Origin: Nemertoderma westbladi
Lineage: Eukaryota; Animalia; Xenacoelomorpha
Length of the DNA stretch: 42,101 bases
Direction: 5' to 3'
Assembly (NCBI GenBank): GCA_032718475.1
Contig: JAUCBJ010002694.1
Coordinates: forward strand, 1-42,101
Positions 2,834-41,058 of the stretch are shown here, piece after piece. The position numbers and the translations under genes were made by a program. Under the pieces are notes generated by a model. It was not told where the DNA came from. It did no database searches and saw nothing but the letters and a program-made list of their open reading frames with translations. Position 1 is the stretch's first letter. Each line of letters begins with the position of its first letter.

Positions 2834-3000
2834 ACTCATGTAAAGAACTTTAAAAATCATTCAAATAAACTGAAAATTTATCTTCATCAAAAGTTATGTA
2901 ATATATTTTGTTGAATTATCTCAATCATTACAGCTATACAGGTATTCTACAATATTATTCCATTTACGATTCAGTTATTATTTTATTATTATCGAGAATT

Positions 3001-7557: not shown

Positions 7558-7696
7558 CAGCCGGTGCACCATAATCTTGTGCTTGGGCGCCCTCTTGGAG
7601 ATAATAAGCATGGTGGGGTGGGCAGCCCGTGCACCATAATCTTGTGCTTGGGCGCCCGCTTGGAGATAATAAGCATGGTGGGGTGGGCAGCCCGTG
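7558..7696. repeat. 65-bp tandem duplication (2.1 copies)
   Basis: CAGCC(G/C)GTGCACCATAATCTTGTGC...GGGGTGGG starts at 7558 and 7623, with a partial third copy at 7688. Confidence 0.93.
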
Positions 7697-9267: not shown

Positions 9268-9757
9268 ATGGAATGTGAGTTTTGCGCGAATTCTTCGTTT
9301 GATAATATCGCCGGGCTGTACTATTGTACGGAATGTAACTCACAGAGTCAGCATGTCAGAGAGGAGGCTGTAGAAGATACATTCAACCAGACGAGAGGCC
9401 ACCACATCGCAGAGGCCGGGGCCGGCCGTGCAAAGACAGCCCAGAAAGCCCGGACAAAGGAAGAAAGACTTAAAGTGAGGATGGGAGAACCTTGGTTAAC
9501 GATGGATGGCTTCCAGGCGATTCTTAAGTATACAACCGAGTTACTTATAAATACATTCGACTTCGATGCGAATGTTAAGGATCACGTTGGGTTTATGTGG
9601 TTTCGGTATTTGAAGGCGTGCAATTACGCCTTTACTAAGAATCCCGTTAAACCTCCGACATTACGGGATGAACTGAACGGAGTCAGCTCAGAGATGGAGC
9701 TGTACGATAAACTATGCAACCATAGCAAAGAAGGAACCGCTGTTAAACGGAAAGCAG
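9268..9757 (+). CDS. TAF1B: TAF1B/Rrn7 (RNA Pol I SL1 subunit B), exon 1
   Basis: N-terminal TFIIB-type zinc ribbon CEFC...GLYYCTEC, then the WLTMDGFQAILK...MWFRYLK block characteristic of TAF1B. Donor GCAG|GTATTT, phase 1. Confidence 0.85.
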
Positions 9758-10157
9758 GTATTTAGTAGTAGTAGTAGTAGTAGTAAGCCTAACAAACTCG
9801 GGCAGTCGGGCGTAGGCATATTTGTTATAAGTGAATTCACGTCAATATAGCTAGCAAAGATCATGTCACCCTTTTTTATGTTAGGCCTATAGGAATTGGT
9901 TTGGAGTACGAAACCACTAATAATTGTCATTTGCCATTATTTGTCTGGCCATAAGTGCATTTCTGCCCTACGATAAAAACTTTGCTAAAAACATTTTGTT
10001 AAGGACAATAGGGGTGATATGATTTATTATTAGTTTATTAAATTTTTGTCAATATTACCACAAGCATAGCGAACTTAAAGTACCTGAAATACAGTCCGTG
10101 TTGTTAAGGTAGCCTTTAGTATTGCATTTAATATACCCTGTACTACTTATGTTGTAG

Positions 10158-11782
10158 AGGATGATGTTCATGATGAAATGGTCACGGAAAACATCGACAA
10201 TCTTGACGACCTCAACATCGACGATTATAGCGATGGTGACAACGATGATACTTCGAGTTCGAGTGGCATGGAATTATCTCCTAGAATTCACGGACGAGTC
10301 GGTTGCGGCTACCGTTCCTATCGACGCAACGTTAGTGTAATCAGCCTCGACGTTATCCTAGTCATTCTCTACCTCGCTCTCAGAAACACCAGCAGCAACA
10401 TCGAGCTAGGGGACCTCGCGAGGTGGGCCTGTCTGGGACACCTCCCTTACTGGGACGCGGGAAGCCGTCTTCCACCCCAGATGAAACTCTCAATAAAGGG
10501 TGACACTTGGACCTTCTTCCCTAGGAAGCCGCCTAGTCTGATCTTGCTCTATTGGTTATCGGCGCGTCTCCAGATCCTAATGTCGCGATCCAAGAAGCTC
10601 ACCCTCCCGGACCCCCCGCTGCTCGCGCTTGTCGGTCGGTATTTGTCCGACTCGAATCTCCCCCGCGAGATTGCGACTGTCGTCGCTTCGATCCTGGACG
10701 GGTTGATGCGATGGCCGTGTAAGCGAACCGCGTGGAGGTTGATAGCTCCGCGGAAGTTCCAAGGGAAACCCGTGTTTATTGTGATCCGGGAAGCGTACGC
10801 GGCTGCGTTGATCGTGGTCGCTTGCAAACTCCTCTTTGTCGAGGCGAATGGAGATAGTGAGGAAGATGTTGTTGATAATGAGGGTGATATAGTGGGTGAT
10901 AGCGATCCTGCAGTGCCTGTTTCAAGCGGCACTGTGAATTATTGTGGCGAATTTGGCGACGGTAGTAGCGAAATGTCCGACAGTCCATCAACAGAGTGCT
11001 GCCCACCTAGTGATTCCCCCGACGAGACTACATTCCGGCTCTCCGATTGGTTCTCCTACATGCGTTTGTGGGTTGAGCGAACGCCTCGCGTCGCCGCGGA
11101 CTTTACGCTGCGCGGGAACCACGCGGACAACCCCAGCGAACTGTGCGCGGAATACAGACGGGCGTTGCTACCTCGCTACACATCGGAGCGACTAATCTCC
11201 GGACCCAGACAGGTTCTGCGCTACAATAAACCAGACCGAGTAGCCGCCAGACAGCACATAGCCGCAATGTTTAGTGATAAGACAAGTGATAAATATGTTA
11301 ACAGAACCTCCGAAGAACCAAGTTTATACTGCCTGTGGATGAAATATAACCCAACTCCTATATCTAACGAACCGGGGTCAACCAATAAATGTTTTATTTT
11401 CTCCAGCGTTTCCCCGTATATCGAGTCCCGAGTGAAGTCTCTCGGTCGATCAGAAAGCTCCACCACATCGTTGTATTCGGTAATGTCGTTCGTTAACCTT
11501 CCCGCAGGTAACAAGGTACCGATGCTGTCCATTGCTGAACCCAGTCGTATCCCGGGATATTTACAAATTCCGGAATCGGTTCGGTTACTCCTGGACTTAC
11601 TAAGCGAGATTAGCGGTCTCTCTGTTACAACTATTCTCTATTACGTACAGGACATCGAAGGGCAGATGTTCCGGAAGGAAGGAAAGGCTATTAGTGATGA
11701 TAGTGACAGTTCCGTTGATTACGACTCCACCGGAAGCCCTGAACCGGAATCCCTTACCTTGAACCGGAATCCCATACCTTGA
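10158..11782 (+). CDS. TAF1B: TAF1B/Rrn7, exon 2 (joined protein ~704 aa)
   Basis: Acceptor TTATGTTGTAG|AG joins in frame (G|AG GAT GAT) across a 400-bp GT-AG intron. LVILYLAL...LGDLARWACLGHLPY and EAYAAALIVVACKLLF match TAF1B cyclin-fold motifs. Confidence 0.85.
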
Positions 11783-12692
11783 GCCGGAATCCCTTACCTC
11801 GAACCGGAATCCCTAACCTTAAACCGGATTCCCTTACCTTGAACCGGAATCCCTTACCTTGAACCGGAATCCCTTACCATGAACCGGAATCCCTTACCAT
11901 GAACCGGAATCCCTTACCTTGAACCGGAATCCCTTACCCTGAACCGGAATCCCTTACCTTGAACCGGAATCCCTTACCATGAACCGGAATCCCTTACCTT
12001 GAACCGGAATCGCTTACTTTAAACCGGAATCCCTTACTATGAACCGGAATCCCTTACCTTGAACCGGAATCCCTTACCTTGAACCGGAATCCCTTACCTT
12101 GAACCGGAATCCCTTACCTTGAACCGGAATCGCTTACTTTGAACCGGAATCCCTTACCTTGAACCGGAATCCCTTACCTTGAACCGGAATCGCTTACTTT
12201 GAAAACCGGAATCCCTTACCTTGAACCGGAATCCCTTAACATGAACCGGAATCCCTTACCTTGAGCCGGAATCCCTTACCTCGAACCGGAATTCCTTACC
12301 ATGAACCGGAATCCCTAACCTTGAACCGGATTCCCTTACCTTGAACCGGAATCCCTTACCTTGAACCGGAATCCCTTACCTTGAACCGGAATACCTTACC
12401 TTGAACCGGAATCCCTTACCATGAACCGGAATCCCTTACCTTGAACCGGAATCGCTTACTTTGAACCAGAATCCCTTACCAAGAACCGGAAACCCTTAAC
12501 ATGAACCGGAATCCCTTACCTTGAACCGGAATCCCTTACCTTGAACAGGAATCGCTTACTTTGAACCGGAATCCCTTACCTTGAACCGGAATCCCTTACC
12601 TGAACCGGAATCGCTTACTTTGAACCGGAAGCCCTTACCTTGAACCGGAATCGCTTACTTTGAACCGGAATCCCTTACCTTGAACCAGAATC
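11741..12692. repeat. 20-bp minisatellite GAACCGGAATCCCTTACCTT, ~47 copies, overlapping the TAF1B stop codon
   Basis: Directly visible; units align in register with the 60-base lines. Confidence 0.97.
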
Positions 12693-13747
12693 ACACTATC
12701 TGATGTTCGACAAATCATTTGACGTTGAAGCAACCTTAACCTGCTTGGGGTTAAATAGGGAATTATTTAATATCAATACTATTTGACTGAGGCCGGTTTG
12801 TGTAATTATCCTTTACATGTTGTACAATGTTGTGCTAAATTGTTTATTATCATACACGGTAATACTGTACACGTGCAATATATAATTATTGAATATTTTC
12901 ATGTAATGTTATATGTATATTATGAAGTTTGTTGGTTTTATGTGTGTTACTGCGCTAATTTCTATCACAAGCTGAGTTTTTTTTGCCAATTTTGACCCGT
13001 GAAAATAAGTTTAAAACTTTTCTATTTCACTGTGACTTGTCTATTTTTTTAATTGTACGTTTAAATGAATGTAACACGCAATGATTCCGAAACCCCAGAC
13101 TTAATGATTGGCTCAATGATCATTGATAATTGAGTTTCTGTTCATTGTAACGTGGTTCATATTTTGTTTTGAAATTAGAAAATAACCATGACCTATATTA
13201 TAGTGTTATTCTCCGCCTCTGATGATACGGACAACGCAAATAGTTCTACTCACCGTCGATTACCAGACGGAGACGAATTTTTAGCCTTTCAATTTTTAAA
13301 AGCAATTTAAAATTTTGTCTTTCGTGAAATCTCACAATTCGTATCGAAAGTATCCATTCTCCATCACATTAGCATCAACATAGTATCTTATATCATTAGA
13401 AAGTTTACTTTACCAGGATTCTAAATTTAACAATGTCTGAATTCCATTGAGAAACATGTGATTTAATTACTTTCAAAGATTACAAGAATAATCGTTGTCT
13501 CCATTTATACCAAGGACTTCTAGAAGATAATATTTATTCAGGACGCGAAGCTCGCATACAATACAGTGTTAATTTTTTTTAGAGACCGTATATTTTCTAC
13601 AACCGAGCCATACCGAAGACTACTAAATACGCCACAGAGAGCCATATTTACGTATATTTACGTTAAGACCCCTAGATCCCTTCCTATAATAAATATTTAC
13701 GTAGGGACAGATTGAGATAGCAGAAAGATTATATGAGATATGAGTTA

Positions 13748-16700
13748 CAAACAGATCGGATAAAAAGATCGGACAGACAAACAGATCGGACAAAGAGATC
13801 AGACAGACAAACACATCGGACAAAGAGATCAGACAGACAAACAGATCGGACAAAGAGATCACACAGATCGGACAAAGAGATCAGACAGACAAACAGATCG
13901 GACAGAGTGATCAGACAGACAAACAGATCGGACAAAGAGATCAGACAGACAAACAGATCAGACTAAGGGATCAGACAGACAAACAAATCGGGCAAAGGGA
14001 TCAGACAGACAAACAGATCGGACAAAGAGATCAGACATACAAACAGATCGGACAATGAGATCAGACAGACAAACAGATCGGACAAAGAGGTCAGACTGAC
14101 ATACAGATCGGACAAAGAGATCAGACAGACAAACAGATCGGACAAAGGGATCAGACAGGCAAACAGATCCTATAAAGGGGTCAGACAGACAAACAGAGCG
14201 GACAAAGGGATCAGACAAACAAACATATCGGACAAATGGATCAGACTGACATACAGATCGGACAAAGAGATCAGACAGACAAACAGATCGGACAAAGGGA
14301 TCATACAGACAAATAGATCGGACAAAGGGATCAGACCGACAAACAGATCGGACAAAGGATCAGACAGACAAACAGATCGGACAGACAAACAGATCAGACA
14401 AAGGGATCAGACAGGCAACCAATTCCTACAAAGGGATCAGACAGACAAACAGATCGGACAAAGAGATCAGACATACAAACAGATCGGACAAAGAGATCAA
14501 ACAGACAAACAGATCGGATAAAGAGATCAGACAGACAATCAGATCGGACAAAGAGATCAGACAGACAAACAGATCGGACAAAGAGATCAGACAGACAAAC
14601 AGATCGGACAAAGAGATCATACAGACAAACAGATCAGACAAAGGGATCAGACAGGCAAACAAATCGGACAAAGGGATCAGACTGACAAACAGATCGGACA
14701 AAGAGATCAGACATACAAACAGATCGGACAAAGAGATCAAACAGACAAACAGATCGGACAAAGAGATCAGACAGACAAACAGATCGGACAAAGAGATCAG
14801 ACAGGCAAACAGATCGGGCAAAGAGATCAGACAGACAAACAGATCGGACAAATGGATCAGACAGACAAACAGATCGGATAAAGGGATCAGAGAGACAAAC
14901 AGAGCGGACAAAGAGATCAGACAGATAAACAGATCGGACAAAGGGATCAGACAGACAAACAAATCGGACAAAGAGATCAGACATACAAACAGATCGGACA
15001 AAGGGATCAGACAGACAAACAGATCCTATAAAGGGATCAGACAGACAAACAGATCGGACAAAGGGATCAGACAGACAAACATATCGGACAAATGGATCAG
15101 ACAGACAAACAGATCGGACAAAGGGATCAGATAGACAAACAGCGGACAAAGGGATCAGACAGACAAACAGATCGGACAAAGGGATCAGACAGAAAAACAT
15201 ATCGGACAAAGAGATCAGACATACAAACAGAGCGGACAAAGGGATCAGACAGACAAACAAATCGGACAAAGGGATCAGACAGACAAACATATCGGACAAA
15301 GGGATCAGACAGACAAACATATCGGACAAAGGGGTCAGACAGACAAACAGAGCGGACAAAGGGATCAGACAGACAAACAGATCGGACAAAGGGATCAGAC
15401 AGACAAACAGATCTGACAAAGGGATCAGACAGACAAACAGCTCGGACAAAGGGATCAGACAGAAAAACAGATCGGACAAAGAGATCAGACAGATAAAGAG
15501 ATCGGACAAAGGGATCAGACAGACAAACAAATCGGACAAAGGGATCAGACAGACAAACAGAGCGGACAAAGGGGTCAGACAGACAAACAGAGCGGACAAA
15601 GGGATCAGACAGACAAACAGAGCGGACAAAGGGGTCAGACAGACAAACAGAGCGGACAAAGGGATCAGACAGACAAACAGAGCGGACAAAGGGGTCAGAC
15701 AGACAAACAGAGCGGACAAAGGGGTCAGACAGACAAACAGAGCGGACAAAGGGATCAGACAGACAAACAGAGCGGACAAAGGGGTCAGACAGACAAACAG
15801 ATCGGACAAAGGGATCAGACAGACAAACAGATCGGACAAAGGGATCAGACAGACAAACAGATCGGACAAAGGGATCAGACAGACAAACAGATCGGACAAA
15901 GGGATCAGACAGACAAACAGATCGGACAAAGAGATCAGACAGACAAACAGCTCGGGCAAAGGGATCAGACAGAAAAACAGATCGGACAAAGAGATCAGAC
16001 AGATAAACAGATCGGACAAAGGGATCAGACAGACAAACAAATCGGACAAAGGGGTCAGACAGACAAACATAGCGGACAAAGGGATCAGACAGACAAACAG
16101 AGCGGACAAAGGGGTCAGACAGACAAACAGATCGGACAATGAGATCAGACAGACAAACAGATCGGACAAAGAGATCAGACTGACATACAGATCGGACAAA
16201 GGGATCAGACAGACAAACAAATCGGACAAAGAGATCAGACATACAAACAGAGCGGACAAAGGGATCAGGCAGACAAACAAATCGGACAAAGGGATCAGAC
16301 AGACAAACATATCGGACAAAGGGATCAGACAGACAAACAAATCGGACAAAGAGATCAGACATACAAACAGAGCGGACAAAGGGATCAGACAGACAAACAG
16401 AGCGGACAAAGGGGTCAGACAGACAAACAGAGCGGACAAATGGATCAGACAGACAAACAGATCGGACAAAGGGGTCAGACAGACAAACAGAGCGGACAAA
16501 GGGGTCAGACAGACAAACAGATCGGACAAAGGGATCAGACAGACAAACAAATCGGACAAAGGGATCAGACAGACAAACATATCGGACAAAGAGATCAGAC
16601 AGACAAACAGATCGGACAAAGGGATCAGATAGACAAACAGAGCGGACAAAGGGGTCAGACAGACAAACAGAGCGGACAAAGGGATCAGACAGACAAACAG

Positions 16701-17870
16701 AACGGACAAAGGGGTCAGACAGACAAACAGAGCGGACAAAGGGATCAGACAGACAAACAGATCGGACAAAGGGGTCAGACAGACAAACAGAGCGGACAAA
16801 GGGATCAGACAGACAAACAAATCGGACAAAGGGATCAGACAGACAAACATATCGGACAAAGGGATCAGACAGACAAACAAATCGGACAAAGAGATCAGAC
16901 ATACAAACAGAGCGGACAAAGGGATCAGACAGACAAACAGAGCGGACAAAGGGGTCAGACAGACAAACAGAGCGGACAAAGGGATCAGACAGACAAACAG
17001 ATCGGACAAAGGGGTCAGACAGACAAACAGAGCGGACAAAGGGGTCAGACAGACAAACAGAGCGGACAAAGGGATCAGACAGACAAACAAATCGGACAAA
17101 GGGATCAGACAGACAAACATATCGGACAAAGAGATCAGACAGACAAACAGATCGGACAAAGGGATCAGATAGACAAACAGAGCGGACAAAGGGGTCAGAC
17201 AGACAAACAGATCGGATAAAGAGATCAGACAGACAAACAGATCGGACAAAGAGATCAGACAGATAAACAGATCGGACAAAGGGATCAGACAGACAAACGA
17301 ATCGGACAAAGGGATCAGACAGACAAACATATCGGACAAAGAGATCAGACAGACAAACAGATCGGACAAAGGGATCAGATAGACAAACAGAGCGGACTAA
17401 GGGGTCAGACAGACAAACAGATCGGACAAAGGGATCAGACAGACAAACAGATCGGACAAAGAGATCAGACAGATAGACAGATCGGACAAAGGGATCAGAC
17501 AGACAAACAAATCGGACAAAGAGATCAGACATACAAACAGAGCGGACAAAGGGATCAGACAGACAAACAGAGCGGACAAAGGGGTCAGACAGACAAACAG
17601 ATCGGACAAATGGATCAGACAGACAAACATATCGGACAAATGGATCAGACAGACAAACAGATCGGACAGAGTGATCAGACAGACAAACAGATCGGACAAA
17701 GAGATCAGACAGACAAACAGATCGGACAAATGGATCAGACAGACAAACAGATCGGGCAAAGGGATCAGACAGACAAACAGATCGGACAAAGGGATCAGAC
17801 AGACAAACAGATCGGACAAAGGGATCAGACAGACAAACAGATCGGACAAAGAGATCAGACAGACAAACAC
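13748..17870. repeat. 30-bp satellite AAACAGATCGGACAAAG(G/A)GATCAGACAGAC, ~137 copies
   Basis: Directly visible. The unit contains two related halves (AAACAGATCGGAC and AAAGGGATCAGAC) plus AGAC. Confidence 0.98.
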
Positions 17871-17977
17871 AAATAATCACAACGCAGACAGTCAAATAAC
17901 AAATATATAATGTAGATAGGACAATTTGATAATGCTCACCATAGCGAAAAATATCAACCGGCCCTATTGGGGCTCGA

Positions 17978-18021
17978 ACCCGGTACCTAGGTTTCAAACT
18001 TCTGGTTATCATCAGCCGGGT
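17978..18021 (-). ncRNA. Minimal type I hammerhead ribozyme (left-arm copy), within tRNA-like unit 17958-18043
   Basis: Exact reverse complement of 18334-18377. Confidence 0.75.
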
Positions 18022-18309
18022 GACTACTGAGCTACCAGACCGGATGAATATTTCGCTGTGGAGTGGAGTGGGAGATCATATTTAGGCCAACTAATCACTC
18101 AAAGGAAAGTACAAGTTCGTTATTCCCGTGCTCTGCCAGCCTGGGCTAGGCATTACGGGGTTACAGTGGTTTCTACAACACTGTATAATAGTTATTCTTT
18201 GAGGCATGGTTGCCATTTCTGGCAGAGCACGGGAATAACGAACTTGTACTTTCCTTTGAGTGATTAGTTGGCCTAAATATGATCTCCCACTCCACAGCGA
18301 AATATTCAT

Positions 18310-18408
18310 CCGGTCTGGTAGCTCAGTACACTCACCCGGCTGATGATAACCAGAAGTTTGAAACCTAGGTACCGGGTTCGAGCCCCAATAGGGCCGGTTG
18401 ATATTTTT
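18310..18408 (+). ncRNA. tRNA-like Pol III transcription unit containing the hammerhead
   Basis: CCGGTCT/GGGCCGG acceptor-like stem, A box TAGCTCAGT (18319), B box GGTTCGAGCCC (18375-18385), TTTTT terminator at 18404-18408. Confidence 0.7.
18334..18377 (+). ncRNA. Minimal type I hammerhead ribozyme (right-arm copy)
   Basis: ACCCGG (stem I) - CTGATGA - T AAC cagaa GTT T (stem II) - GAAA - palindromic ACCTAGGT helix III - GTA cleavage triplet (after 18371) - CCGGGT (stem I'). Confidence 0.78.
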
Positions 18409-19247
18409 CGCTATGGAGAGCATTATCATATTGTCCTATCTACATTATATATTTAATTCACCGTCACTCACCCCACAACAATTCATTTATTATTATTAAA
18501 TAACAAATATGAGACTAATGAAATTAATTTCCAACTAATGAAATTAATTTACCGTTGCCATATCAACAGTTAATTAATGGAGCCGTGAAACAAAATAATC
18601 GCCTCATGGATGGCCGTATTTTGAACCGATTATGTTCGAATGTGCCAGTAATTTACAATTTTTAAAAAACATACCTTTTTTTCTTGAATTTAAATGATAA
18701 ATTATTTTCCATAGCATTTTAAATATAAATATTTATCCAGAAAAGTGTTCTGTTCAGAATGCATTTTTAGCTAGAGCCTGGGAATAGTACCTGGAATACT
18801 GATTTCGAGAATAAATTTTAAAGTAAAACTACAACGGTCAATATTCCTCTAAATACGAATCGCTTTGTATTAAGCGTTGATGGGTGAGTACAAAACAAAG
18901 ACTCAAGACCTGTACAAAACACATGTGTAAACTTTCGTTTGGTTCCCCCAACACGCCTCTGTAACCTGCTCCTTTAAATGGCAATGGGACCTAACGCGAC
19001 TTTACCTCTTTGTTTTGTACAGATGGTATTGTGTCTTTGCATTGTACCCACACCCCCCCCCCCCCCCCCCCAAATTTAGCGTTTCGAACATGACCATTAG
19101 TCCGTGGTGCTATTATACTACAGTGAGTTGTTCTAACACGGAGCAATACCGCCTTGCTTCAAGTATCTCAGTAAAATATTAATACTAGGCCTTACCGGTA
19201 GCTGATGTGATCGTGATCTCCAGATGTAGCATATTAAAATATAGGCC

Positions 19248-21352: not shown

Positions 21353-23319
21353 ATAAGTCATGACCAGACCAGACCAAACCAACCCTGTATAGACGATAGA
21401 GCCTGAAAAGTGTCAGGCGTATAATATCAAATATATAGTCAAAAGAGGTTGATATTAGATATCAGAAAATAGCCTTCAGATTTGGAATCTCCATTAAATT
21501 CGCCACACCACCACAGGTGGAGATCATAAAAAAATATGGATCCAAAATATATAGCGCTAACACCCCATCCTCCCTTACCAGTAGTAGGGTCTTGGCCGGC
21601 TCTGCGACAGTTGGACCCCACTGACACCCATTGGGTGTCATATGACACCCAATTATCACCCTATGGGTGTCATTGGGTGTCATTGGCGCCAGACTGTCTG
21701 GGTGACACCTCCCAATTAGGCTAATTAGACCCTAATTGACAGGTGTCATCAATTAATTAGTACAATTAAACCCTAACAGGTGTCATATGACTCCTAATTA
21801 GGGTTTAATTGATTATCCTAATTAATCAGACTGATTAGCGCCCTGACACACAATGGGTCAATCAGTGTTGTCCAACTGTCGCAGAGCCGGCTCAAGAGGG
21901 TGTCATAAGTGACACCGCAGCTCTTTTATTCATTAATACTTATTTATTTATATTTAATTTTAATTAATTGTACTTTATTTTACTTTATTTATTCATTTGT
22001 ACTTTATTTTATATTAATTATTCATTTGTACTTTATGGGTATACAGCTCCCTTACTGGTAACTAATTACTCTTATCTATATCCAGACAGCTTTTTCGTTG
22101 ACCTTTGACCTTTGACCCCTCAATTAGCTTTAACCAAGCAACAGCATATTAATGATAGTTGTATCCAAGCGCCCCTGCCCCCACCCCGTGACAGCTCTGA
22201 TTACTAATTACTCGTACATATATCCAACCGCCTGCAGTTCCATAGTCTGCCGCTAGAGGGCGTATTATCTGAAAATTAACATCTTCTCTAACTTTGTTAT
22301 TTTCAATTTAACTATTTATTTCTACCTAATTTTAATTAATTATTTGTATTCTATTTTACTTTATTTATTCATTTGTACTTTATTTTAAATTAATTAATTG
22401 TATTACTTTTATTTTATATATTGATTTCTATTTTTAGATTAATTAGTTTTTATATTACTTACCGCTACTAAATGAGATCATTATTGGAAGCATCTAACCA
22501 TAGACTTGCAGCCTTATTTAGCCATAGGGTATACAGCTCCCCTACTGGTAACTATTTTGGAGTTAATGTTAGCAAAGGGCCTAAACTTAAGACAAGCTAT
22601 CGCCTAGGTTACCAGTTACGCATGAATGAGCAATTTATCGGGGCCCCTTTTAAAATTCTTTGTGCTGCGTCAGGATTGCCTCATTTAAGGAAGCCGCATC
22701 CCTATCGATAATCTAATTATGGTATCGCTAACCATTTTCAGTATACTGTATAATTAAATAGGGCCCTCTTTTAATACATAAGTTTATATATACAGTTTAT
22801 CTTCAATTTAATTTGTTTTTATTTACAACCCTAATTGTTCTACTGTAATTTATGTTTTATAATATCAAGCTATATCCGGTTAATCCATATTAATTTACTT
22901 TGTACTGAGGTTATCGAGGGCGCTCTTTCCAATGGTCCTATTCTCAAAACGATCTAACCCACTGTATAATTAATTACTTAAGACTGCGAGGTATGCGTAA
23001 TTAACACATCTCATTTACCAGTTTTCCTTAAAAACTATGAAGTTATATTGCTTAAGAGTTCTAAGGGGCGAGCCATGAGGCTAGATGTTTGAGGCTTATT
23101 TAGATATATTATTACTTAATTTGACCCCCCAATCGGCATCTACTATGGCATAGGCTATATCTTTTGCAGAGTCACAGAGTAGTATGAAGTTCCCCAGTCT
23201 GCCGCTAGAGGGCTTAATGTCTCAAAGTGAAAACCATACGGTAGCCATGAATTGGTTACTAGGCAATAATACTGCATTTTGCAACGTTAGACCTATTGCT
23301 GACCGAACGAAAACTGCCC

Positions 23320-23393
23320 TGGTTCATGCAGGGGTCGAACCCATGACATACGAGAGATGTGAATTCTACGCAACCACTACACCAAGGTGGAAC
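23320..23393 (-). ncRNA. tRNA-like unit in left arm, facing outward
   Basis: Inverted homolog of 26782-26855 with A box, B box GGTTCGACCCC and terminal CCA. Confidence 0.6.
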
Positions 23394-23456
23394 AGTAACC
23401 TTCGAATTTGTTCGTTGACGTTCGAATTTGTAAGACTCTCATTTAAGACTTGACAC

Positions 23457-23676
23457 AGACTATGCCTCACCGAGGCATAGACTATGACTCACTGAGGCAT
23501 AGACTATGCCTCACTGAGGCATAGACTATGCCTCACTGAGGCACTGAGGCATAGACTATGACTCACTGAGGCATAGACTATGCCTCACTGAGGCATAGAC
23601 TATGCCTCACTGAGGCATAGACTATGCCTCACTGAGGCATAGACTATGCCTCACTGAGGCATAGACTATGCCTCAC
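23457..23676. repeat. 22-bp quasi-palindromic satellite AGACTATGCCTCACTGAGGCAT, ~10 copies
   Basis: Directly visible; TATGCCTCA-C-TGAGGCATA dyad. Confidence 0.96.
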
Positions 23677-24067
23677 CATGGATGGGCTTTACCACTGTAC
23701 TCGCATCTGCTGTCTCATTGGCTGCTCGATGCCTCAGATTAAGGGTCTAAGACCTTCAAGCTGGTCATTTGCTTAGTTTTATAATTAGAAGGTCGTGAGT
23801 TCGAACCCTAGAAGAGCATTTTTCTTTTTCCTAGCTCTTGGTTAACTCTAGTATACACTCTAGCTTTGACTCTCCCGCCGGCTATAGTTATAGTATGCAA
23901 CCTTGGGAGTTAATGTGAGTAAAGACCAAGAGATTAGACTTCAGGCTCCCTCTATTGGTTCATTCTTCTTAACTTTATATAATAACTCAACCCGTATTTA
24001 AAGTTTTGAAAATTATGACTTAGTCGACTAATTTTCCAAAGTATATTATAAAAACATATAATTTCTT

Positions 24068-24228
24068 GAATAAATAGACCTAATAGTAATAAATATTGTG
24101 GGGTAAATACATTTATAATACTAATATAATTATTATGGATAAATAGTCCTAATACTATTATAATTGTTATGGATAAATAGTCCTAATACTAATATAATTG
24201 TTTTGGATAAATAGCCCTAACACTATTA
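24068..24228. repeat. Degenerate ~34-bp AT-rich tandem repeat (GGATAAATAGTCCTAATACTA...), 3-5 copies, downstream of the zinc-finger ORF
   Basis: GGATAAATAG(T/C)CCTAA at ~24137, 24171 and 24205, with weaker copies upstream. Confidence 0.75.
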
Positions 24229-24253
24229 TGAAAGGAACTCAAACAAACAAATG

Positions 24254-25306
24254 TCAATAGCGTCGTCCTGCGCGGGCATTTACTGAACGAGAGTTTTTTA
24301 TCATAGGTCTTCGAAAATTAGTAAAAGCTGGTTGATTTACTTTACTTTCATCTTCCTCGTTACCCAACTGTTTCTTAATTTTATTCAATTGTTCATTAAT
24401 TTTCAGTAATTTACTTTTATTTCCCAGAACCTGTCTTAATATCTCTTCTCTATTTTCCTCATTTTCTTCCATTTGTTTAATAAATTTCCGCATTTGATTT
24501 TTGTTTCCTAATATTTGTCTCAATATCTCTTCTTTATTTTCATCATTCTCTTCTAAATGTTTAATAAATTTCTGTAATTTAATTTTACTTCCTAGAACTT
24601 GGGTCAATGTCGCCTCTTTATTTTCTTCATTTTCCTTCAAATGTTTAATAATTTTCCGCAATTGATTCTTATTTCCAAGTAATTGCCTCTTTATTTCCTC
24701 ATTATCATCATTTTCATCCTCTTCTCCACTTTCCTGATCTTCACTTTCTTCACCCTCTTTCTGACCTTCACTTTCTTCATCCTCTTCCCCGCCTTCACTT
24801 TCTTCATCGTCTTCCTGTTCTTCACTTTCTTCATCCTCTTCCTGTTCTTCACTTTCTTCATTCTCTTCCTGACCTTCGCTATCTTCACCCTCTTCTTGAC
24901 CTTCACTTTCTTCATCATCATCCTGATCTTCACTTTCTTCGTTCTCAACCTCACTCTCTTCAACTTCATCCTGACCCTCACTATTTTCATTCTCCATCTC
25001 ATCATCCTCTTCTTCTCCATCTTTCTCACTCAAATTTTCCTCATTTTCTAGGGGTAACTGTTTTTGTATCCCTTTCAAAATATTCATAACTTTATGAAAT
25101 TTACTTTCCATTGTCTGTTTTATATTTAATATATCACGCTCATCTCTCTTTTTCTTTTCATCTTCACTAAAAATATCTTCGGATTTTTTAAATTTTTTTG
25201 GTAATGGAGCCATTAGTTTTTCCTTTCCATGTGTTTCCATATGACGAGATAAATTGTCTTGTCTCATTTCTTTATTACAGACCAAACAAGTTTCATGTCT
25301 ATGCAT
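24254..25306 (-). CDS. 350-aa protein: N-terminal C2H2-like zinc finger, acidic 10-aa repeats, 28-aa coiled-coil repeats; sole cargo ORF of the element
   Basis: CLVC-x11-H-x3-H, basic PKKFKK, EESEGQEE-type repeats, about four EEILRQ.LGNK..L.K.IK.LEENEENK repeats. Uninterrupted and intronless, A at -3, first ATG after a predicted Inr. Confidence 0.8.
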   Translation of the reverse strand: MHRHETCLVCNKEMRQDNLSRHMETHGKEKLMAPLPKKFKKSEDIFSEDEKKKRDERDILNIKQTMESKFHKVMNILKGIQKQLPLENEENLSEKDGEEEDDEMENENSEGQDEVEESEVENEESEDQDDDEESEGQEEGEDSEGQEENEESEEQEEDEESEEQEDDEESEGGEEDEESEGQKEGEESEDQESGEEDENDDNEEIKRQLLGNKNQLRKIIKHLKENEENKEATLTQVLGSKIKLQKFIKHLEENDENKEEILRQILGNKNQMRKFIKQMEENEENREEILRQVLGNKSKLLKINEQLNKIKKQLGNEEDESKVNQPAFTNFRRPMIKNSRSVNARAGRRY

Positions 25307-25418
25307 TATATAGCAATGTCAATTGAAAATATTGAATTTTAGCTAAATGATTTTACAAAATTTTAAATAAATTAAACTTTTATGAAAATAAATAAAACTT
25401 TTTAATATAAAACTTAGA

Positions 25419-25544
25419 GAATGACTGGGAATGCGTTGAACGGGGGTTATTATAGAGGGAGGCTAGAATGGATTATCCAATCAGAGTGCGAGGGTGAGTT
25501 AGGCAGCCAATCAGGACTCGAGGGAGGAAAGTTAAACAGCCAAT
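25419..25544 (-). promoter_or_regulatory. Pol II promoter for the zinc-finger ORF: 3x CCAAT, TATA, Inr
   Basis: CCAAT at 25477, 25507 and 25540 (30 and 33 bp apart, in NF-Y-like CCAATCAG/CCAATGAG context). Minus-strand TATAATAA at 25454-25447 and TCATTC Inr at 25424-25419, about 32 bp apart. Confidence 0.65.
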
Positions 25545-25760
25545 GAGAGAGCAGATGCGAGTACAGGGGTAAAGTGCCCGCCCATCCATGGTGAGATAAC
25601 GTCACACTAACTCTCAAGGATAGTTATACTCACCATTCAAATATCCCTCGCAAACCAGATTCCCCCCAGCATCTAACGTATTCCACTTCAATGCAAAATA
25701 TATAGAGCTTTAGTTGGATTTGAACCTGTGCTTGTAAACTTTTTTGTGCTCGTATATTGA

Positions 25761-26718
25761 AGTGAGGCATAGACTATGCCTCACTGAGGCATAGTCTATG
25801 CCTCAGTGCCTTAGTGAGGCATAGTCTATGCCTCAATGAGTCATAGTCTATGCCTCAGTGCCTCAGTGAGGCATAGTCTATGCCTCAGTGAGTCATAGTC
25901 TATGCCTCAGTGCCTCAGTGAGGCATAGTCTATGCCTCAGTGAGGTCTAGTCTATGCCTCAGTGAGGCAGAGTCTATCCCTCACTGCCTCAGTGAGGCAC
26001 TGAGTGAGGCATAGACTATGCCTCAGTGAGTCATAGTCTATGCCTCATGCCTCAGTGAGGCATAGTCTATGCCTCAGTGAGGCATAGTCTATGCCTCAGT
26101 GAGTCATAGTCTATGCCTCAGTGCCTCAGTGGGGCAGTGAGGCATAGTCTATGCCTCAGTGAGGCATAGTCTATGCCTCAGTGAGTCATAGTCTATGCCT
26201 CAGTGAGTCATAGTCTATGCCTCAGTGCCTCAGTGAGGCCTAGTCTATGCCTCAGTGAGGCCTAGTCTATGCCTCAGTGAGGCATAGTCTATGCCTCAGT
26301 GAGGCATAGTCTATACCTCAGTGAGTCAGTGAGGCATAGTCTATGCCTCAGTGAGGCCTAGTCTACGCCTCAGTGAGGCATAGTCTATGCCTCAGTGCCT
26401 CAGTGAGGCATAGTCTATGCCTCAGTGAGGCATAGTCTATGCCTCAGTGAGTCATAGTCTATGCCTCAGTGCCTCAGTGAGGCATAGTCTATGCCTCAGT
26501 GAGGCATAGTCTATGCCTCAGTGAGGCATAGTCTATGCCTCAGTGAGTCATAGTCTATGCCTCAGTGAGTCATAGTCTATGCCTCAGTGAGTCATAGTCT
26601 ATGCCTCAGTGCCTCATAGTCTATGCCTCAGTGAGGCATAGTCTATGCCTCAGTGCCTCAATGAGGCATAGTCTATGCCTCAGTGAGTCATAGTCTATGC
26701 CTCGGTGAGGCATAGTCT
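25761..26718. repeat. 22-bp quasi-palindromic satellite, inverted relative to 23457-23676, ~43 copies
   Basis: (AGTCTATGCCTCAGTGAGGCAT)n with TGAGTCA variants and short half-unit duplications. Confidence 0.97.
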
Positions 26719-26781
26719 GTGTCAAGTCTTAAATGAGAGTCTTACAAATTCGAACGTCAACGAGCAAATTCGAAGGTTACT

Positions 26782-26855
26782 GTTCCACCTTGGTGTAGTG
26801 GTTGCGTTGAATTCACATCTCCCGTATGTCATGGGTTCGATCCCCGCATGAACCA
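26782..26855 (+). ncRNA. tRNA-like (Val-CAC-derived) unit in right arm, facing outward
   Basis: GTTCCACCTTGGTGTAGTGGTT...TTCACA...GGGTTCGATCCCC...TGAACCA, then TTTT at 26862-26865. Confidence 0.62.
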
Positions 26856-27859
26856 GGGCAGTTTTCGTTCGGTCAGCAATAGGCCTAACGTTGCAAAATG
26901 CAGTATTATTGCCTAGTAACCAATTCATGGCTATCGTATGGTTTTCACTTTGAGATATTTCGCCCTCTAGCGGCAGACGGGGGAACTTCAGACTACTCTG
27001 TGACCCTGCAAAAGATATAGCCTATGCCGTAATAGATGCCGATTGGGGGGTCAAATTAAGTAATAATATATCTTAATAAGTCTCAAACATCTTGCCTCAT
27101 GGCTCGCCCCTTAGAACTCTTGAGCAATATAACTTCATGGTTTTGCGGATTGTAAATATCAAAGCTAGAGAAGATGTTAATTTTTAAACAATACGCCCTC
27201 TAGCGGCAGACTATGGAACTGCAGGCGGTTGGATATAGGTAACAGTAATTAGTAATCAGAGCTGTCACGGGGTGGGGGCGGGGGGCGCTTGGATACAACT
27301 ATCATTAATATGCTGTTGCTTGGTTAAAGCTAATTGGGGGGGTCAAAGGTCAAAGGTCAGCGATAAAGCTGTCTGGATATAGATAAGAGTAATTAGTTGC
27401 CAGTAAGGGAGCTGTATACCCATAAAGTACAAATGAATAATTAAAGTAAAATAAAGTACAAATAATTAATTAAAATTAAATATAAATAAATAGGTATTAA
27501 TGAATAAAAGAGTAATGATGGCAGAGGAGGGGTCCCCCGCCGATGAACGTAGTTGATAGTTGCTGGGAATGTGGTGAACGGGGGATGCAATAGGTAATTA
27601 TATAGCTAAATATAGACATGATGTCATAGTGATCTCATTGGTAATATAAAAACTACTTAATCTAAAAATAGAAATCAATGTATAAAGTAAAAGTAATATA
27701 TACAATTAATTAATTTAAAATAAAGTACAAATGAATAATTAATTTAGAATTAAATACAAATAAAATAAAATGCAAATAATTAATTAAAATTAAGTATAAA
27801 TAAATAAGTATTAATGAATAAAAGAGCCGCGGTGTCACTTATGACACCCTCTTGGGCCT

Positions 27860-28130
27860 CTCGGCGACAGTTAGACCCAACTCATGACTCATCGCTTAGG
27901 AATGTGACGCCTTGGGTGTCATTGGCGCCAGACTGTCTGGGTGACACCTCCCAATTAGGCTAATTAGACCCTAATTAGGGTTTAATTGTACTAATTAATT
28001 GATGACACCTGTCAATTAGGGTCTAATTAGCCTAATTGGGAGGTGTCACCCAGACAGTCTGGCGCCAATGACACCCAAGGCGTCACATTCCTAAGCGATG
28101 AGTCATGAGTTGGGTCTAACTGTCGCCGAG
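27860..28130. repeat. Subterminal hairpin: ~117-bp perfect stem, ~37-nt loop
   Basis: CTCGGCGACAGTTAGACCC...GACCCTAATT (27860-27976) is the reverse complement of 28014-28130. Confidence 0.93.
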
Positions 28131-28229
28131 CCGGCCAAGACCCTACTACTAGTTATGTATATTTCACTATTAACCATTGATTATTATTATTTTTATAGCG
28201 CATCTAAGAAATACTTTATTAGAAACCAC

Positions 28230-31830: not shown

Positions 31831-34800
31831 AACTATACTACCGTTGTAGTAGCTGCACTACCGTAGAATCTACACTACCGTTGTAGTAGCTGCACTACCG
31901 TAGAAACTACACTACCGTTGTAGTAGCTGTACTACCGTATAAATTATACTACCGTTGTAGTAGCTGCACTACCGTAGAATCTATACTACCGTTGTAGTAA
32001 CTGCACTACCGTATAAACTATACTACCGTTGTAGTAGCTGCACTACTGTAGAAACTATACTACCGTTGTAGTAGCTGTACTACCGTATAAACTACACTAC
32101 CGTTGTAGTAGCTGCACTACCGTAGAATCTATACTACCGTTGTAGTAGCTGCACTACCGTAGAATCTATACTACCGTTGTAGTAGCTGCACTACCGTATA
32201 AACTATACTACCGTTGTAGTAGCTGTACTACCGTATAAACTATACTACCGTTGTAGTAGCTGCTCTACCATAGAAACTACACTACCGTTGTAGTAGCTGT
32301 ACTACCGTAGAATCTATACTACCGTTGTAGTAGCTGCACTACCGTAGAAACTATACTACCGTTGTAGTAGCTGCACTACCGTATAAACTATACTACCGTT
32401 GTAGTAGCTGCACTACCGTAGAATCTATACTACCGTTGTAGTAGCTGTACTACCGTATAAACTACACTACCGTTGTAGTAGCTGCACTACCGTAGAAACT
32501 ATACTGCCGTTGTAGTAGCTGCACCACCGTTGTAGTAGCTGCACTACCGTAGAAACTATACTAACGTTGTAGTAGCTGCACTACTGTAGAAACTATACTA
32601 CCGTTGTAGTAGCTGCACTACCGTACAAACTATACTACCGTTGTAGTAGCTGCACTACCGTAGAAACTACACTACCGTTGTAGTAGCTGCACTACCGTAT
32701 AAACTATACTACCGTTGTAGTAGCTGCACTACCGTAGAATCTATAATAACGTTGTAGTAGCTGCACTGCCGTTGTATTAGCTGCACTACCGTAGAAACTA
32801 CACTACCGTTGTAGTAGCTGCACTACCGTAGAAACTATACTACCGTTGTAGTAGCTGCACTACCGTAGAAACTACACTACCGTTGTCGTAACTGCACTAC
32901 CGTATAAACTATACTACCGTTGTAGTAGCTGCACTACAGTAGAAACTATACTACCGTTGTAGTAGCTGCACTACCGTAGAAACTATACTACCGTTGTATT
33001 AGCTGCACTACCGTAGAAACTACACTACCGCTGTAGTAGCTGCACTACCGTAGAAACTATACTACCGTTGTAGTAGCTGCACTACCGTAGAAACTATACT
33101 ACCGTTGTAGTAGCTGTACTACCGTATAAACTACACTACCGTTGTAGTAGCTGCACTACCGTAGAAACTATACTACCGTTGTAGTAGCTGCACTATCATA
33201 GAAACTACACTACCGTTGTAGTAGCTGCACTACCGTATAAACTACACTACCGTTGTAGTAGCTGCACTACCGTAGAAACTATACTACCGTTGTAGTAGCT
33301 GCACTACCGTATAAACTACACTACCGTTGTAGTAGCTGCACTACCATAGAAACTACACTACCGTTGTAGTAGCTGCACTACCGTAGAAACTACACTACCG
33401 TTGTAGTAGCTGCACTACTGTAGAAACTACACTACCGTTGTAGTAGCTGCACTACAGTAGAAACTATACTACCGTTGTAGTAGCTGCACTACCGTAGAAA
33501 CTACACTACCGTTGTAGTAGCTGCACTACCGTAGAAACTACACTACCGTTGTCGTAGCTGCACTACCGTAGAAACTACACTACCGTTGTAGTAGCTGCAC
33601 TACCGTAGAAACTATACTACCGTTGTAGTAGCTGCACTACAGTAGAAACTATACTACCGTTGTAGTAGCTGCACTACCGTAGAAACTATACTACCGTTGT
33701 ATTAGCTGCACTACCGTAGAAACTACACTACCGCTGTAGTAGCTGCACTACCGTAGAAACTATACTACCGTTGTAGTAGCTGCACTACCGTAGAAACTAT
33801 ACTACCGTTGTAGTAGCTGCACTACCGTTATATTAGCTGCACTACCGTAGAAACTATACTACCGTTGTAGTAGCTGCACTACCGTATAAACTATACTACC
33901 GTTGTAGTAGCTGCACTACCGTAGAAACTACATTACCGTTGTAGTAGCTGCACTACCGTATAAACTATACTACCGTTGTAGTAGCTGCACTACCGTAGAA
34001 TCTATAATACCGTTGTAGTAGCTGCACTGCCGTTGTATTAGCTGCACTAGCGTAGAAACTACACTACCGTTGTAGTAGCTGCACTACCGTAGAAACTATA
34101 CTACCGTTGTAGTAGCTGCACTGCCGTTGTATTAGCTGCACTACCGTAGAAACTACACTACCGTTGTAGTAGCTGCACTACCGTAGAAACTATACTACCG
34201 TTGTAGTAGCTGCACTACCGTAGAAACTACACTACCGTTGTAGTAACTGCACTACCGTAGAAACTATACTACCGTTGTAGTAGCTGCACTACAGTAGAAA
34301 CTATACTACCGTTGTAGTAGCTGCACTACCGTAGAAACTATACTACCGTTGTATTAGCTGCACTACCGTAGAAACTACACTACCGCTGTAGTAGCTGCAC
34401 TACCGTAGAAACTATACTACCGTTGTAGTAGCTGCACTACCGTAGAAACTATACTACCGTTGTAGTAGCTGCACTACCGTTGTATTAGCTGCACTACCGT
34501 AGAAACTATACTACCGTTGTAGTAGCTGCACTACCGTATAAACTATACTACCGTTGTAGTAGCTGCACTACCGTAGAAACTACACTACCGTTGTAGTAGC
34601 TGCACTACCGTATAAACTATACTACCGTTGTAGTAGCTGCACTACCGTAGAATCTATAATACCGTTGTAGTAGCTGCACTGCCGTTGTATTAGCTGCACT
34701 ACCGTAGAAACTACACTACCGTTGTAGTAGCTGCACTACCGTAGAAACTACACTACCGTTGTCGTAACTGCACTACCGTATAAACTATACTACCGTTGTA

Positions 34801-37800
34801 GTAGCTGCACTACAGTAGAAACTATACTACCGTTGTAGTAGCTGCACTACCGTAGAAACTATACTACCGTTGTATTAGCTGCACTACCGTAGAAACTACA
34901 CTACCGCTGTAGTAGCTGCACTACCGTAGAAACTATACTACCGTTGTAGTAGCTGCACTACCGTAGAAACTATACTACCGTTGTAGTAGCTGTACTACCG
35001 TATAAACTACACTACCGTTGTAGTAGCTGCACTACCGTAGAAACTATACTACCGTTGCAGTAGCTGCACTACCATAGAAACTACACTACCGTTGTAGTAG
35101 CTGCACTACCGTATAAACTACACTACCGTTGTAGTAGCTGCACTACCGTAGAAACTATACTACCGTTGTAGTAGCTGCACTACCGTATAAACTACACTAC
35201 CGTTGTAGTAGCTGCACTACCATAGAAACTACACTACCGTTGTAGTAGCTGCACTACCGTAGAAACTACACTACCGTTGTAGTAGCTGCACTACCATAGA
35301 AACTACACTACCGTTGTAGTAGCTGCACTACCGTATAAACTACACTACCGTTGTAGTAGCTGCACTACCATAGAAACTACACTACCGTTGTAGTAGCTGC
35401 ACTACCGTAGAAACTACACTACCGTTGTAGTAGCTGCACTACTGTAGAAACTACACTACCGTTGTAGTAGCTGCACTACAGTAGAAACTATACTACCGTT
35501 GTAGTAGCTGCACTACCGTAGAAACTACACTACCGTTGTAGTAGCTGCACTACCGTAGAAACTACACTACCGTTGTCGTAGCTGCACTACCGTAGAAACT
35601 ACACTAACGTTGTAGTAGCTGCACTACCGTAGAAACTATACTACCGTTGTAGTAGCTGCACTACAGTAGAAACTATACTACCGTTGTAGTAGCTGCACTA
35701 CCGTAGAAACTATACTACCGTTGTATTAGCTGCACTACCATAGAAACTACACTACCGCTGTAGTAGCTGCACTACCGTAGAAACTATACTACCGTTGTAG
35801 TAGCTGCACTACCGTAGAAACTATACTACCGTTGTAGTAGCTGCACTACCGTTATATTAGCTGCACTACCGTAGAAACTATACTACCGTTGTAGTAGCTG
35901 CACTACCGTATAAACTATACTACCGTTGTAGTAGCTGCACTACCGTATAAACTATACTACCGTTGTAGTAGCTGCACTACCGTAGAAACTACACTACCGT
36001 TGTAGTAGCTGCACTACCGTAGAAACTACACTACCGTTGTCGTAGCTGCACTACCGTAGAAACTACACTACCGTTGTAGTAGCTGCACTACCGTAGAAAC
36101 TATACTACCGTTGTAGTAGCTGCACTACAGTAGAAACTATACTACCGTTGTAGTAGCTGCACTACCGTAGAAACTATACTACCGTTGTATTAGCTGCACT
36201 ACCGTAGAAACTACACTACCGCTGTAGTAGCTGCACTACCGTAGAAACTATACTACCGTTGTAGTAGCTGCACTACCGTAGAAACTATACTACCGTTGTA
36301 GTAGCTGCACTACCGTTATATTAGCTGCACTACCGTAGAAACTATACTACCGTTGTAGTAGCTGCACTACCGTATAAACTATACTACCGTTGTAGTAGCT
36401 GCACTACCGTAGAAACTACACTACCGTTGTAGTAGCTGCACTACCGTATAAACTATACTACCATTGTAGTAGCTGCACTACCGTAGAATCTATAATACCG
36501 TTGTAGTAGCTGCACTGCCGTTGTATTAGCTGCACTACCGTAGAAACTACACTACCGTTGTAGTAGCTGCACTACCGTAGAAACTATACTAGCGTTGTAG
36601 TAGCTGCACTACCGTAGAAACTACACTACCGTTGTAGTAGCTGCACTACCGTAGAAACTATACTACCGTTGTAGTAGCTGCACTACCGTAGAAACTATAC
36701 TACCGTTGTATTAGCTGCACTACCGTAGAAACTACACTACCGCTGTAGTAGCTGCACTACCGTAGAAACTATACTACCGTTGTAGTAGCTGCACTACCGT
36801 AGAAACTATACTACCGTTGTATTAGCTGCACTACCGTAGAAACTACACTACCGCTGTAGTAGCTGCACTACCGTAGAAACTATACTACCGTTGTAGTAGC
36901 TGCACTACCGTAGAAACTATACTACCGTTGTAGTAGCTGCACTACCGTTGTATTAGCTGCACTACCGTAGAAACTATACTACCGTTGTAGTAGCTGCACT
37001 ACCGTATAAACTATACTACCGTTGTAGTAGCTGCACTACCGTAGAAACTACACTACCGTTGTAGTAGCTGCACTACCGTATAAACTATACTACCGTTGTA
37101 GTAGCTGCACTACCGTAGAAACTACACTACCGTTGTCGTAACTGCACTACCGTATAAACTATACTACCGTTGTAGTAGCTGCACTACAGTAGAAACTATA
37201 CTACCGTTGTAGTAGCTGCACTACCGTAGAAACTATACTACCGTTGTATTAGCTGCACTACCGTAGAAACTACACTACCGCTGTAGTAGCTGCACTACCG
37301 TAGAAACTATACTACCGTTGTAGTAGCTGCACTACCGTAGAAACTATACTACCGTTGTAGTAGCTGTACTACCGTATAAACTACACTACCGTTGTAGTAG
37401 CTGCACTACCGTAGAAACTATACTACCGTTGTAGTAGCTGCACTACCATAGAAACTACACTACCGTTGTAGTAGCTGCACTACCGTATAAACTACACTAC
37501 CGTTGTAGTAGCTGCACTACCGTAGAAACTATACTACCGTTGTAGTAGCTGCACTACCGTATACACTACACTACCGTTGTAGTAGCTGCACTACCATAGA
37601 AACTACACTACCGTTGTAGTAGCTGCACTACCGTAGAAACTACACTACCGTTGTAGTAGCTGCACTACCATAGAAACTACACTACCGTTGTAGTAGCTGC
37701 ACTACCGTATAAACTACACTACCGTTGTAGTAGCTGCACTACCATAGAAACTACACTACCGTTGTAGTAGCTGCACTACCGTAGAAACTACACTACCGTT

Positions 37801-40800: not shown

Positions 40801-41058
40801 CCGTTGTCGTAGCTGCACTACCGTAGAAACTACACTACCGTTGTAGTAGCTGCACTACCGTAGAAACTATACTACCGTTGTAGTAGCTGCACTACAGTAG
40901 AAACTATACTACCGTTGTAGTAGCTGCACTACCGTAGAAACTATACTACCGTTGTATTAGCTGCACTACCGTAGAAACTACACTACCGCTGTAGTAGCTG
41001 CACTACCGTAGAAACTATACTACCGTTGTAGTAGCTGCACTACCGTTATATTAGCTGC
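31831..41058. repeat. 37-bp satellite CTA(T/C)ACTACCGTTGTAGTAGCTGCACTACCGTAGAAA, ~250 copies, with higher-order structure
   Basis: Directly visible 9.2-kb array. The unit is 20+17 bp with both subunits sharing ACTACCGT; occasional extra 20-bp monomers. Confidence 0.98.

Follow-up and report, generated by a model that had tools for sequence, protein, structure and literature searches.

A 6.6-kb element with AGTAGT ends and a single zinc-finger gene in Nemertoderma westbladi, probably a helper-dependent Polinton/Maverick derivative

The DNA discussed here, which we call the window, is a stretch of 42,101 nucleotides (nt) from Nemertoderma westbladi (contig JAUCBJ010002694.1 of assembly GCA_032718475.1, forward strand, positions 1-42,101), and our subject is an element of 6571 bp that lies within it at 21580..28150. 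The element begins with AGTAGTA and ends with TACTACT, carries inverted homology that extends inward to 23724 and 25537, and leaves between its arms a core of 1812 bp with only one real gene, an open reading frame (ORF) of 350 amino acids (aa) at 24254..25306 on the minus strand. An earlier reading of the letters alone, made without database searches (hereafter the sequence-only reading), had described just this layout, with AGTAGT…ACTACT termini at 21580 and 28150, homology reaching 23724 and about 25538, and a single real ORF in a core of some 1.8 kb, and in these respects it has held up well. It had also ventured that the whole is a non-autonomous or satellite-like derivative of the Polinton/Maverick elements, which is the more far-reaching claim.

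The terminal 20-mer, AGTAGTAGGGTCTTGGCCGG, occurs exactly at 21580 on the plus strand and at 28131-28150 on the minus strand when the whole window is scanned, and there is no further site in the window at up to three mismatches (0.03 expected by chance). Indeed, the first 23 nt of both termini are identical (21580..21602 on the plus strand and 28128..28150 on the minus strand), and the hairpin sequence differs beyond the first 40 nt. Among the end motifs of vertebrate Mavericks, (AGT)2//(ACT)2 is the one met most often (PMC8097293), and it is precisely this motif that closes our element on both sides. In addition, a third, diverged family end, TTACTACT, lies at 2127, where it forms the right end of a second family member that occupies 1-2127 and is cut by the window start. 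This end keeps AGTAGTA, which is thus present at all three family ends in the window, and it shares GCGACAGTTGGACC (the GCGACAG motif) 17 nt further in, in the same register and with different sequence in between. Because the third end keeps both of these in register, AGTAGTA is best seen as the element's own end and not as target DNA. The terminal pattern gave no matches in viral contigs, and two matches in metagenomes were rejected as bacterial chance matches that have no BLASTN similarity to the window.

What these boundaries lack is a target-site duplication (TSD), since the flanks read CTTACC on one side and AGTTAT on the other, as the sequence-only reading had correctly stated; it missed that, once both ends are trimmed by 3 nt, a direct repeat matching at five of six positions appears (ACCAGT/ACTAGT). 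Our scan, which concerns the single two-ended copy at 21580..28150, covered repeats of 5-12 bp with both ends trimmed alike anywhere between -6 and +9, and besides this repeat it gave one internal 5-mer. A boundary shifted by 3 nt at both ends is possible, but would require the third end to match by coincidence. Moreover, two contigs from two studies (X1 record 4 and X3 record 12 among the public DNA runs described below; about 9% other letters) track the left flank as far as 21577, past which they continue for 69 and 1401 letters, respectively, that are dissimilar to the element. They may be an empty site or a paralogous repeat, and their departure at 21577 fits poorly with the 3-nt-shifted TSD. 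Target sites also bear on a quite different idea, namely that this is a foldback of a cut-and-paste superfamily (Mutator/FB, P/Galileo or the sea-urchin TU type), the AGTAGT ends being coincidental. Foldbacks typically combine long modular arms bearing tandem arrays with very high repetition and variable cores, which is what speaks for this idea. We nevertheless consider it quite improbable, given that, at symmetric trims of -6 to +9, direct repeats of 7-12 bp were absent even with one mismatch allowed, as were exact ones of 5-12 bp, that AGTAGTA stands on three of three ends, that the finger of the ORF has a spacing of virus type, and that no frame of the element has a transposase match in Pfam.

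The protein encoded in the core opens with a CxxC-x11-H-x3-H finger (residues 7-26), followed by basic patches (36-54), a helix (48-83), an acidic tract (86-203, 62% D+E) and four helical repeats of 28 aa (200-311), and the remaining long frames of the core overlie its repetitive part. To call it a zinc-finger cargo gene, as had been done from the letters, is justified by the evident cysteine-histidine pattern and by three matches at 60-64% identity, but not by Pfam, where the finger stays below threshold (zf-C2H2, E 0.16). These three are short unnamed proteins from contigs of less than 1.2 kb (E 6e-5 to 8e-4), and they are among eight HMMER matches to the ORF, four of which fall on the acidic tract and one on the helical repeats (17% identity). 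Protein searches with residues 1-90 (against near lengths) and 1-60 (against shorter lengths) gave no match, the ESM Atlas returned generic C2H2 clusters only (0.84-0.90), Foldseek gave no match to viral structures at E 0.001, and matches in PHROGs were dismissed as coiled-coil noise. A single-sequence AlphaFold model (predicted template-modelling score 0.23) consists of helices only, with helix 48-83 confident, the acidic tract disordered and the repeats in a long helix; a homodimer prediction for residues 1-90 scored 0.02. The ORF has no LxCxE motif and is for that reason not an Oncoid. Three CCAAT boxes on the minus strand (25477..25544, about 30 bp apart and 170-240 nt upstream of the ATG) are likely to form its promoter, and an AT-rich 34-bp tandem repeat in five copies (24056..24229) lies downstream. 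As for other genes, there was no Pfam match at E 0.001 in 75 of the 109 window frames of at least 55 aa, which cover all 11 other frames inside the element, and neither in these nor in the ORF did Pfam detect pPolB, a retroviral-like integrase, an ATPase, a protease or a major or minor capsid protein. Indeed, genes for ATPase, protease and capsid would be impossible to fit, because the core has only 1.8 kb.

How abundant is this family? We gauged it from the contigs of public DNA runs aligned to the stretch, bearing in mind that summed contig depth is not copy number; six of the seven listed runs, from four studies, contain some of the stretch, and the best of them may come from the source sample. 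No RNA run was among those listed as containing it. At the bin with 21580 the summed depth jumps from 1165 to 74653 in run X1 and from 705 to 23329 in run X3. The left flank has depths of 10-1,165 (X1) and 28-705 (X3), the left arm 6,600-245,000 and 740-50,000, and the core 6,800-107,000 and 1,400-19,000, with 4572 and 893 contigs aligned. Within the X1 arm, depth is 74,653-245,265 over the terminal hairpin and 6,600-150,000 along the remainder, and X3 behaves alike. In X3, depth reaches 2435 and 1070 in two contigs that match the ORF letter for letter, compared with 12-43 in six others listed for that run. In X4 the excess is much smaller, and X5, which is labelled as another organism and is only by guess an RNA run, overlaps the core in places, with contig depths mostly of 2-6, and was not used as evidence. 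The sequence-only reading had wanted the copies of the core counted, and by summed depth in X1 and X3 the core is multicopy just as the arms are. A fair inference from these depths is that there may be tens to hundreds of near-identical cores. Because arms and core are both highly repeated, the gene evidently travels with the repeat family and is not a one-off capture. This leaves little room for the view that a host gene present only once happens to be flanked by two repeats in head-to-head orientation: the CCAAT promoter is host-like and no viral homologue turned up beyond the finger, but in both X1 and X3 the repetition of core and ORF equals that of the arms, which contradicts it and makes it barely credible.

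The arms themselves were less simple than their first description, 'about 2 kb', would suggest, for although their inverted homology is real, it forms a mirrored mosaic and not a continuous terminal inverted repeat (TIR), with modules 75-95% identical and shuffled in order, about 570 bp unpartnered on the left, and tandem arrays of 220 and 960 bp. The left arm runs hairpin-A-B-C-D-array-inner repeat, and the right, read inward, hairpin-B-X-A-D-array-Y-inner repeat. The terminal 460 nt or so (21580-22036 against 28150-27720) are only 75% identical. On the plus strand, module A (21921..22307) is paired with 27512-27149 at 89% identity, the AT-rich module B (22313..22458) with 27806-27641 at 83% (its place in the module order differs on the right), module D (23031..23456) with 27144-26719 at 95%, and the inner inverted repeat (23677..23724) with 25590-25537 at 85%; the partnerless pieces of the right arm measure 130-165 bp. 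Segment C (22459..23030, plus strand, the 570 bp mentioned) has no counterpart on the right, and its part 22750-23030 is common to the second copy, where a module D/C stretch at 773-1424 has 87.5% identity to the left arm (22750-23394 matching 1424-773). A joint from 22307 to 23031, omitting most of segment C, is found at depths of 398 (X1) and 2121 (X3), and the short arm form, as on the right, is thus a common variant. Each terminus leaves 10 nt free and then folds back on itself. On the left, some 308 nt (21590..21897, plus strand), in which TGACAC and TAATTA are frequent, form a branched hairpin that folds as DNA to -110.3 kcal/mol (z -18.4, equalled by none of 100 shuffles), and at the right end a rod hairpin (27850..28140), with 127-nt arms that are 98% complementary around a 37-nt loop, folds to -176.7 kcal/mol (z -35).

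Such a patchwork raises the question of whether the locus arose by recombination between two copies of different subfamilies that had inserted independently, in which case the 6.6 kb may never have been mobile as a unit. A recombinant origin would explain both the absent TSD and the unequal arms, which differ in module order and in hairpin sequence past the first 40 nt, and it agrees with the many inter-module joints that occur in the runs and with an X4 contig that links core end to core start. We think it rather unlikely, however, since the terminal 23 nt and a hairpin part of 104 nt are 100% identical between the arms, the short form of the right arm is itself a common variant, and the trimmed ends show the five-of-six direct repeat. 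The X4 contig (record 18, depth 23.8) joins the right end of the core (25553) head to tail with its left end (23728) across a short shared GATGC, and is a tandem, circular or deletion form. No listed contig covers the whole element.

Each arm further carries a tRNA-like Pol III unit facing outward, on the left at 23309..23394 on the minus strand (A box 23384, B box 23340, T4 23313) and on the right at 26781..26866 on the plus strand (A box 26791, B box 26835, T4 26862), so the sequence-only reading was right about the presence of Pol III units. The unit belongs to module D, and it faces outward in the left arm, the right arm and the second copy alike. ARAGORN called none of these units (0 genes), an Rfam scan gave only miRNA-hairpin noise below gathering score, so that the units match no family, and their folds are not consistently better than shuffles (z -0.67, -0.15 and -2.38). 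Two more B-box-like motifs with T runs, lacking a clear A box, occur at the core edges (23799 and 25725). The arms also share a 12-mer that we take to be CTCF-like. All four of its sites in the window lie inside the element, two per arm (22250-22261 in module A and 23202-23213 in module D on the left; 26962-26973 and 27195-27206, minus strand, on the right), and the two pairs are convergent. Only 0.01 sites were expected, a figure to be read knowing that the test was post hoc and the sites are not independent, the arms being homologous and the two sites of each arm lying within a shared 42-bp repeat. The segments of about 45 bp around the motif (23188-23235 and 22228-22274) draw numerous contigs whose two ends are loose, including contigs of run X5, and the segment thus seems common to other repeat families. 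Between module D and the inner repeat lies, on the left, a tandem array of 22-bp units (23457..23676, 220 bp) in which a ten-base half-site recurs 19 times at 11-bp steps, every other one inverted, and on the right a longer one (25761..26718, about 960 bp) with 75 half-sites at the same steps.

Where might the gene have come from? A tblastn search with the finger confirmed five viral loci, one of which (L008) was set aside as an unrelated Zn_ribbon_8 gene, the other four being nuclease-like ORFs of 154-215 aa with the finger toward the C-terminus on contigs resembling virophages or polinton-like viruses (PLVs). L004/L005 has matches to a Sputnik-type major capsid protein, a minor capsid protein and GIY-YIG; L007 matches Pox_A32, D5 and, weakly, GIY-YIG; L003 matches D5; and L006 has no family match above cut-off and is accompanied by three adjacent ORFs of 470-520 aa that have no Pfam match and are possibly capsid-like. 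The CxxC-x11-H spacing and a CNKEMR.D...RH stretch are common to our finger and the C-terminal fingers of L003, L004 and L006. According to PMC3671162, a C2H2 Zn-ribbon is common to virophages, transpovirons and some polintons (as in Sputnik V14, Mavirus MV06 and OLV1), and the short C2H2-type ribbon of the element's ORF fits this pattern. The likeness extends over some 20 residues only; moreover, unlike the virophage-type fingers, ours is N-terminal, is fused to an acidic tract and helical repeats, and has no GIY-YIG domain. The spacing match to virophage/PLV nuclease zinc ribbons is a weak lead, and the ORF likely descends from the accessory module with a zinc ribbon that circulates in the network of virophages and polintons. 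The same finger invites comparison with a linear replicon akin to transpovirons or PLV satellites, with protein-primed or hairpin ends, that would enter chromosomes without an integrase of retroviral type and for which no TSD is expected. Traits of transpovirons include a size of about 7 kb, inverted ends and a Zn-ribbon gene standing by itself (PMC5499653, PMC3671162), and these, the resemblance of the finger to virophage/PLV ribbons, the long terminal hairpins and the absent TSD would all suit this proposal. We judge it improbable all the same: Pfam finds no superfamily 1 helicase or other transpoviron gene in the element's frames, the ends have the Maverick motif, and those two sources report transpovirons with protist giant viruses and not as animal repeat families.

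The reading that we favour, and hold to be reasonably probable, is that the element is a helper-dependent, non-autonomous Polinton/Maverick derivative, one copy of an enzyme-less multicopy family. Of the marks of a non-autonomous Polinton, the end motif, inverted ends (if mosaic ones) and multicopy arms and core are found here, and the sequence-only proposal of such a derivative stands as regards the end motif, the third end in register, the multicopy core and the absence of any core gene, though not as regards a helper with the same ends, a 6-bp TSD or a regulatory function of the gene. With animal Polintons, Mavericks and adintoviruses (PMC8097293, PMC8502044 and PMC6431247) the element shares the (AGT)2//(ACT)2 motif and long inverted ends, and its finger gene can be likened to the small zinc-binding regulators of their accessory region. 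It differs from them in size (6571 bp, compared with 12,723-24,620 bp for Mavericks in PMC8097293), in having no pPolB, integrase, ATPase, protease, capsid or clean 6-bp TSD, in arms that are longer, diverged and mosaic, and in a far higher repetition. It is not an autonomous Polinton, having neither the core genes nor the length of one. Non-autonomous Polintons are of course known already: Kapitonov and Jurka are said to have reported such families in 2006 (the Repbase N-families). What is new is that arms and core are highly repeated and a gene is amplified with the family. Butterfly polintons are reported to have lost polB and retained mobility, and TIRs of about 2 kb occur among them (bioRxiv 10.1101/2025.02.07.637071), and Tlr1 was once classed as a non-autonomous polinton (PMC5499653). 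Like these derivatives as there described, the element keeps Polinton ends, has lost replication genes and carries other cargo; unlike them, it retains no capsid, protease or integrase gene, and it is set apart by arms that are non-coding and hold hairpins, Pol III units and phased arrays. In the literature covered (titles and opening abstracts, with most subscription papers and Repbase reports outside this scope), nothing came up that describes a small foldback derived from Polintons and bearing a single finger gene, Pol III units or CTCF motifs.

A number of points weigh against this interpretation. The canonical ends do not have the 6-bp TSD that defines Polintons, and no helper element or Polinton gene with these ends was found in the window, in the run-contig tables or in the viral and metagenome pattern searches. 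The arms are diverged by 5-25% and shuffled, and their length of about 2.1-2.6 kb exceeds the 46-1447 bp recorded for the TIRs of intact Mavericks in vertebrates, where these elements are mostly low-copy (PMC8097293). Where the element has its 22-bp array the second copy has (CCACAG)n, as (CCACAG)108 between two outward Pol III units, and that copy has no core and no long terminal hairpin, the end at 2127 showing small hairpins only; because of this, core, array type and long hairpin are not universal in the family. The protein, ESM Atlas and structure searches gave no homologue for the ORF outside its finger, the finger match is only 17-18 residues long, and the finger query had itself been built with two of the four loci of virophage type. 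Nor do the variants speak for a maintained gene. Among the 40 variant rows shown (a further 111 are not), 32 fall within the ORF, and these comprise 9 synonymous and 23 non-synonymous changes, with no stops and none at the four metal ligands. A neutral expectation of 16-25% synonymous changes, set against 9/32 seen (p 0.07-0.41), means that there is no clear purifying selection on the ORF, and one in-frame and two 1-nt deletions are also listed, the latter two in X3 contigs.

If the element is indeed a helper-dependent Polinton derivative, its life cycle might run as follows. A full-size Polinton elsewhere in the genome would supply polymerase and integrase, and, by analogy with known Polintons (PMC6431247 and PMC8097293), its protein-primed polymerase would initiate at the (AGT)2 ends, whereupon the single strand set free by displacement could pair its arms as a panhandle. 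Snap-back and template switching could give rise to terminal hairpins, palindromic arrays and shuffled modules, and the product would be inserted by the helper's integrase. The copy at 21580..28150 would have lost a clean TSD through mutation, recombination between copies or repair-mediated insertion. The Pol III units and CTCF-like motifs are predicted to serve as boundary elements and so to hold the cassette in an open state. The ORF product, at rather low odds and by prediction from its sequence, would be a nuclear DNA-binding adaptor, acting most simply on the 11-bp-phased arrays; the replacement of the array in the second copy and the near-neutral ORF variants speak against its being generally required.

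A bolder version, which we think unlikely, makes the element a true Polinton satellite, whose protein would read its own phased arrays through a virophage-type finger and recruit the helper's machinery to the satellite as an adaptor for packaging or tethering, with convergent CTCF sites and Pol III genes resembling virus-associated RNAs shielding both sides. Should the ORF prove a mere passenger, this would be one further non-autonomous family. For the mechanism of Polinton replication and packaging, an element made of ends, hairpins, arrays and one gene would mark the cis-sequences sufficient for amplification in trans, and the ORF and the phased arrays offer a testable protein-DNA pair. In addition, the family suggests that a usually low-copy, virus-like lineage can give rise to repeats of very high abundance, by which Pol III promoters and CTCF-like motifs are spread.

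The surroundings are those of an animal-like eukaryotic genome, as seen in an ORF with a fibrinogen-C domain at 3001, TAF1B/Rrn7-like ORFs at 9268 and 10178, and large satellites. The first of these (3001-4092, 363 aa, Pfam E 4e-22) is apparently intronless, and the TAF1B/Rrn7-like gene (9268-11782) consists of two large ORFs with weak Pfam matches, its 3' end extending into a 20-bp tandem array at 11740-12692. An array of 30-bp units (14367-17869, 3.5 kb) gives long spurious ORFs, and a satellite of 37-bp units (31837-41046, 9.2 kb) has 248 copies. Next to the 30-bp satellite is a further small foldback (17901-18454), with outer arms of 123 nt that are 98% complementary, and it too bears tRNA-like B-box units facing outward, at 17979 on the minus strand and 18376 on the plus strand.

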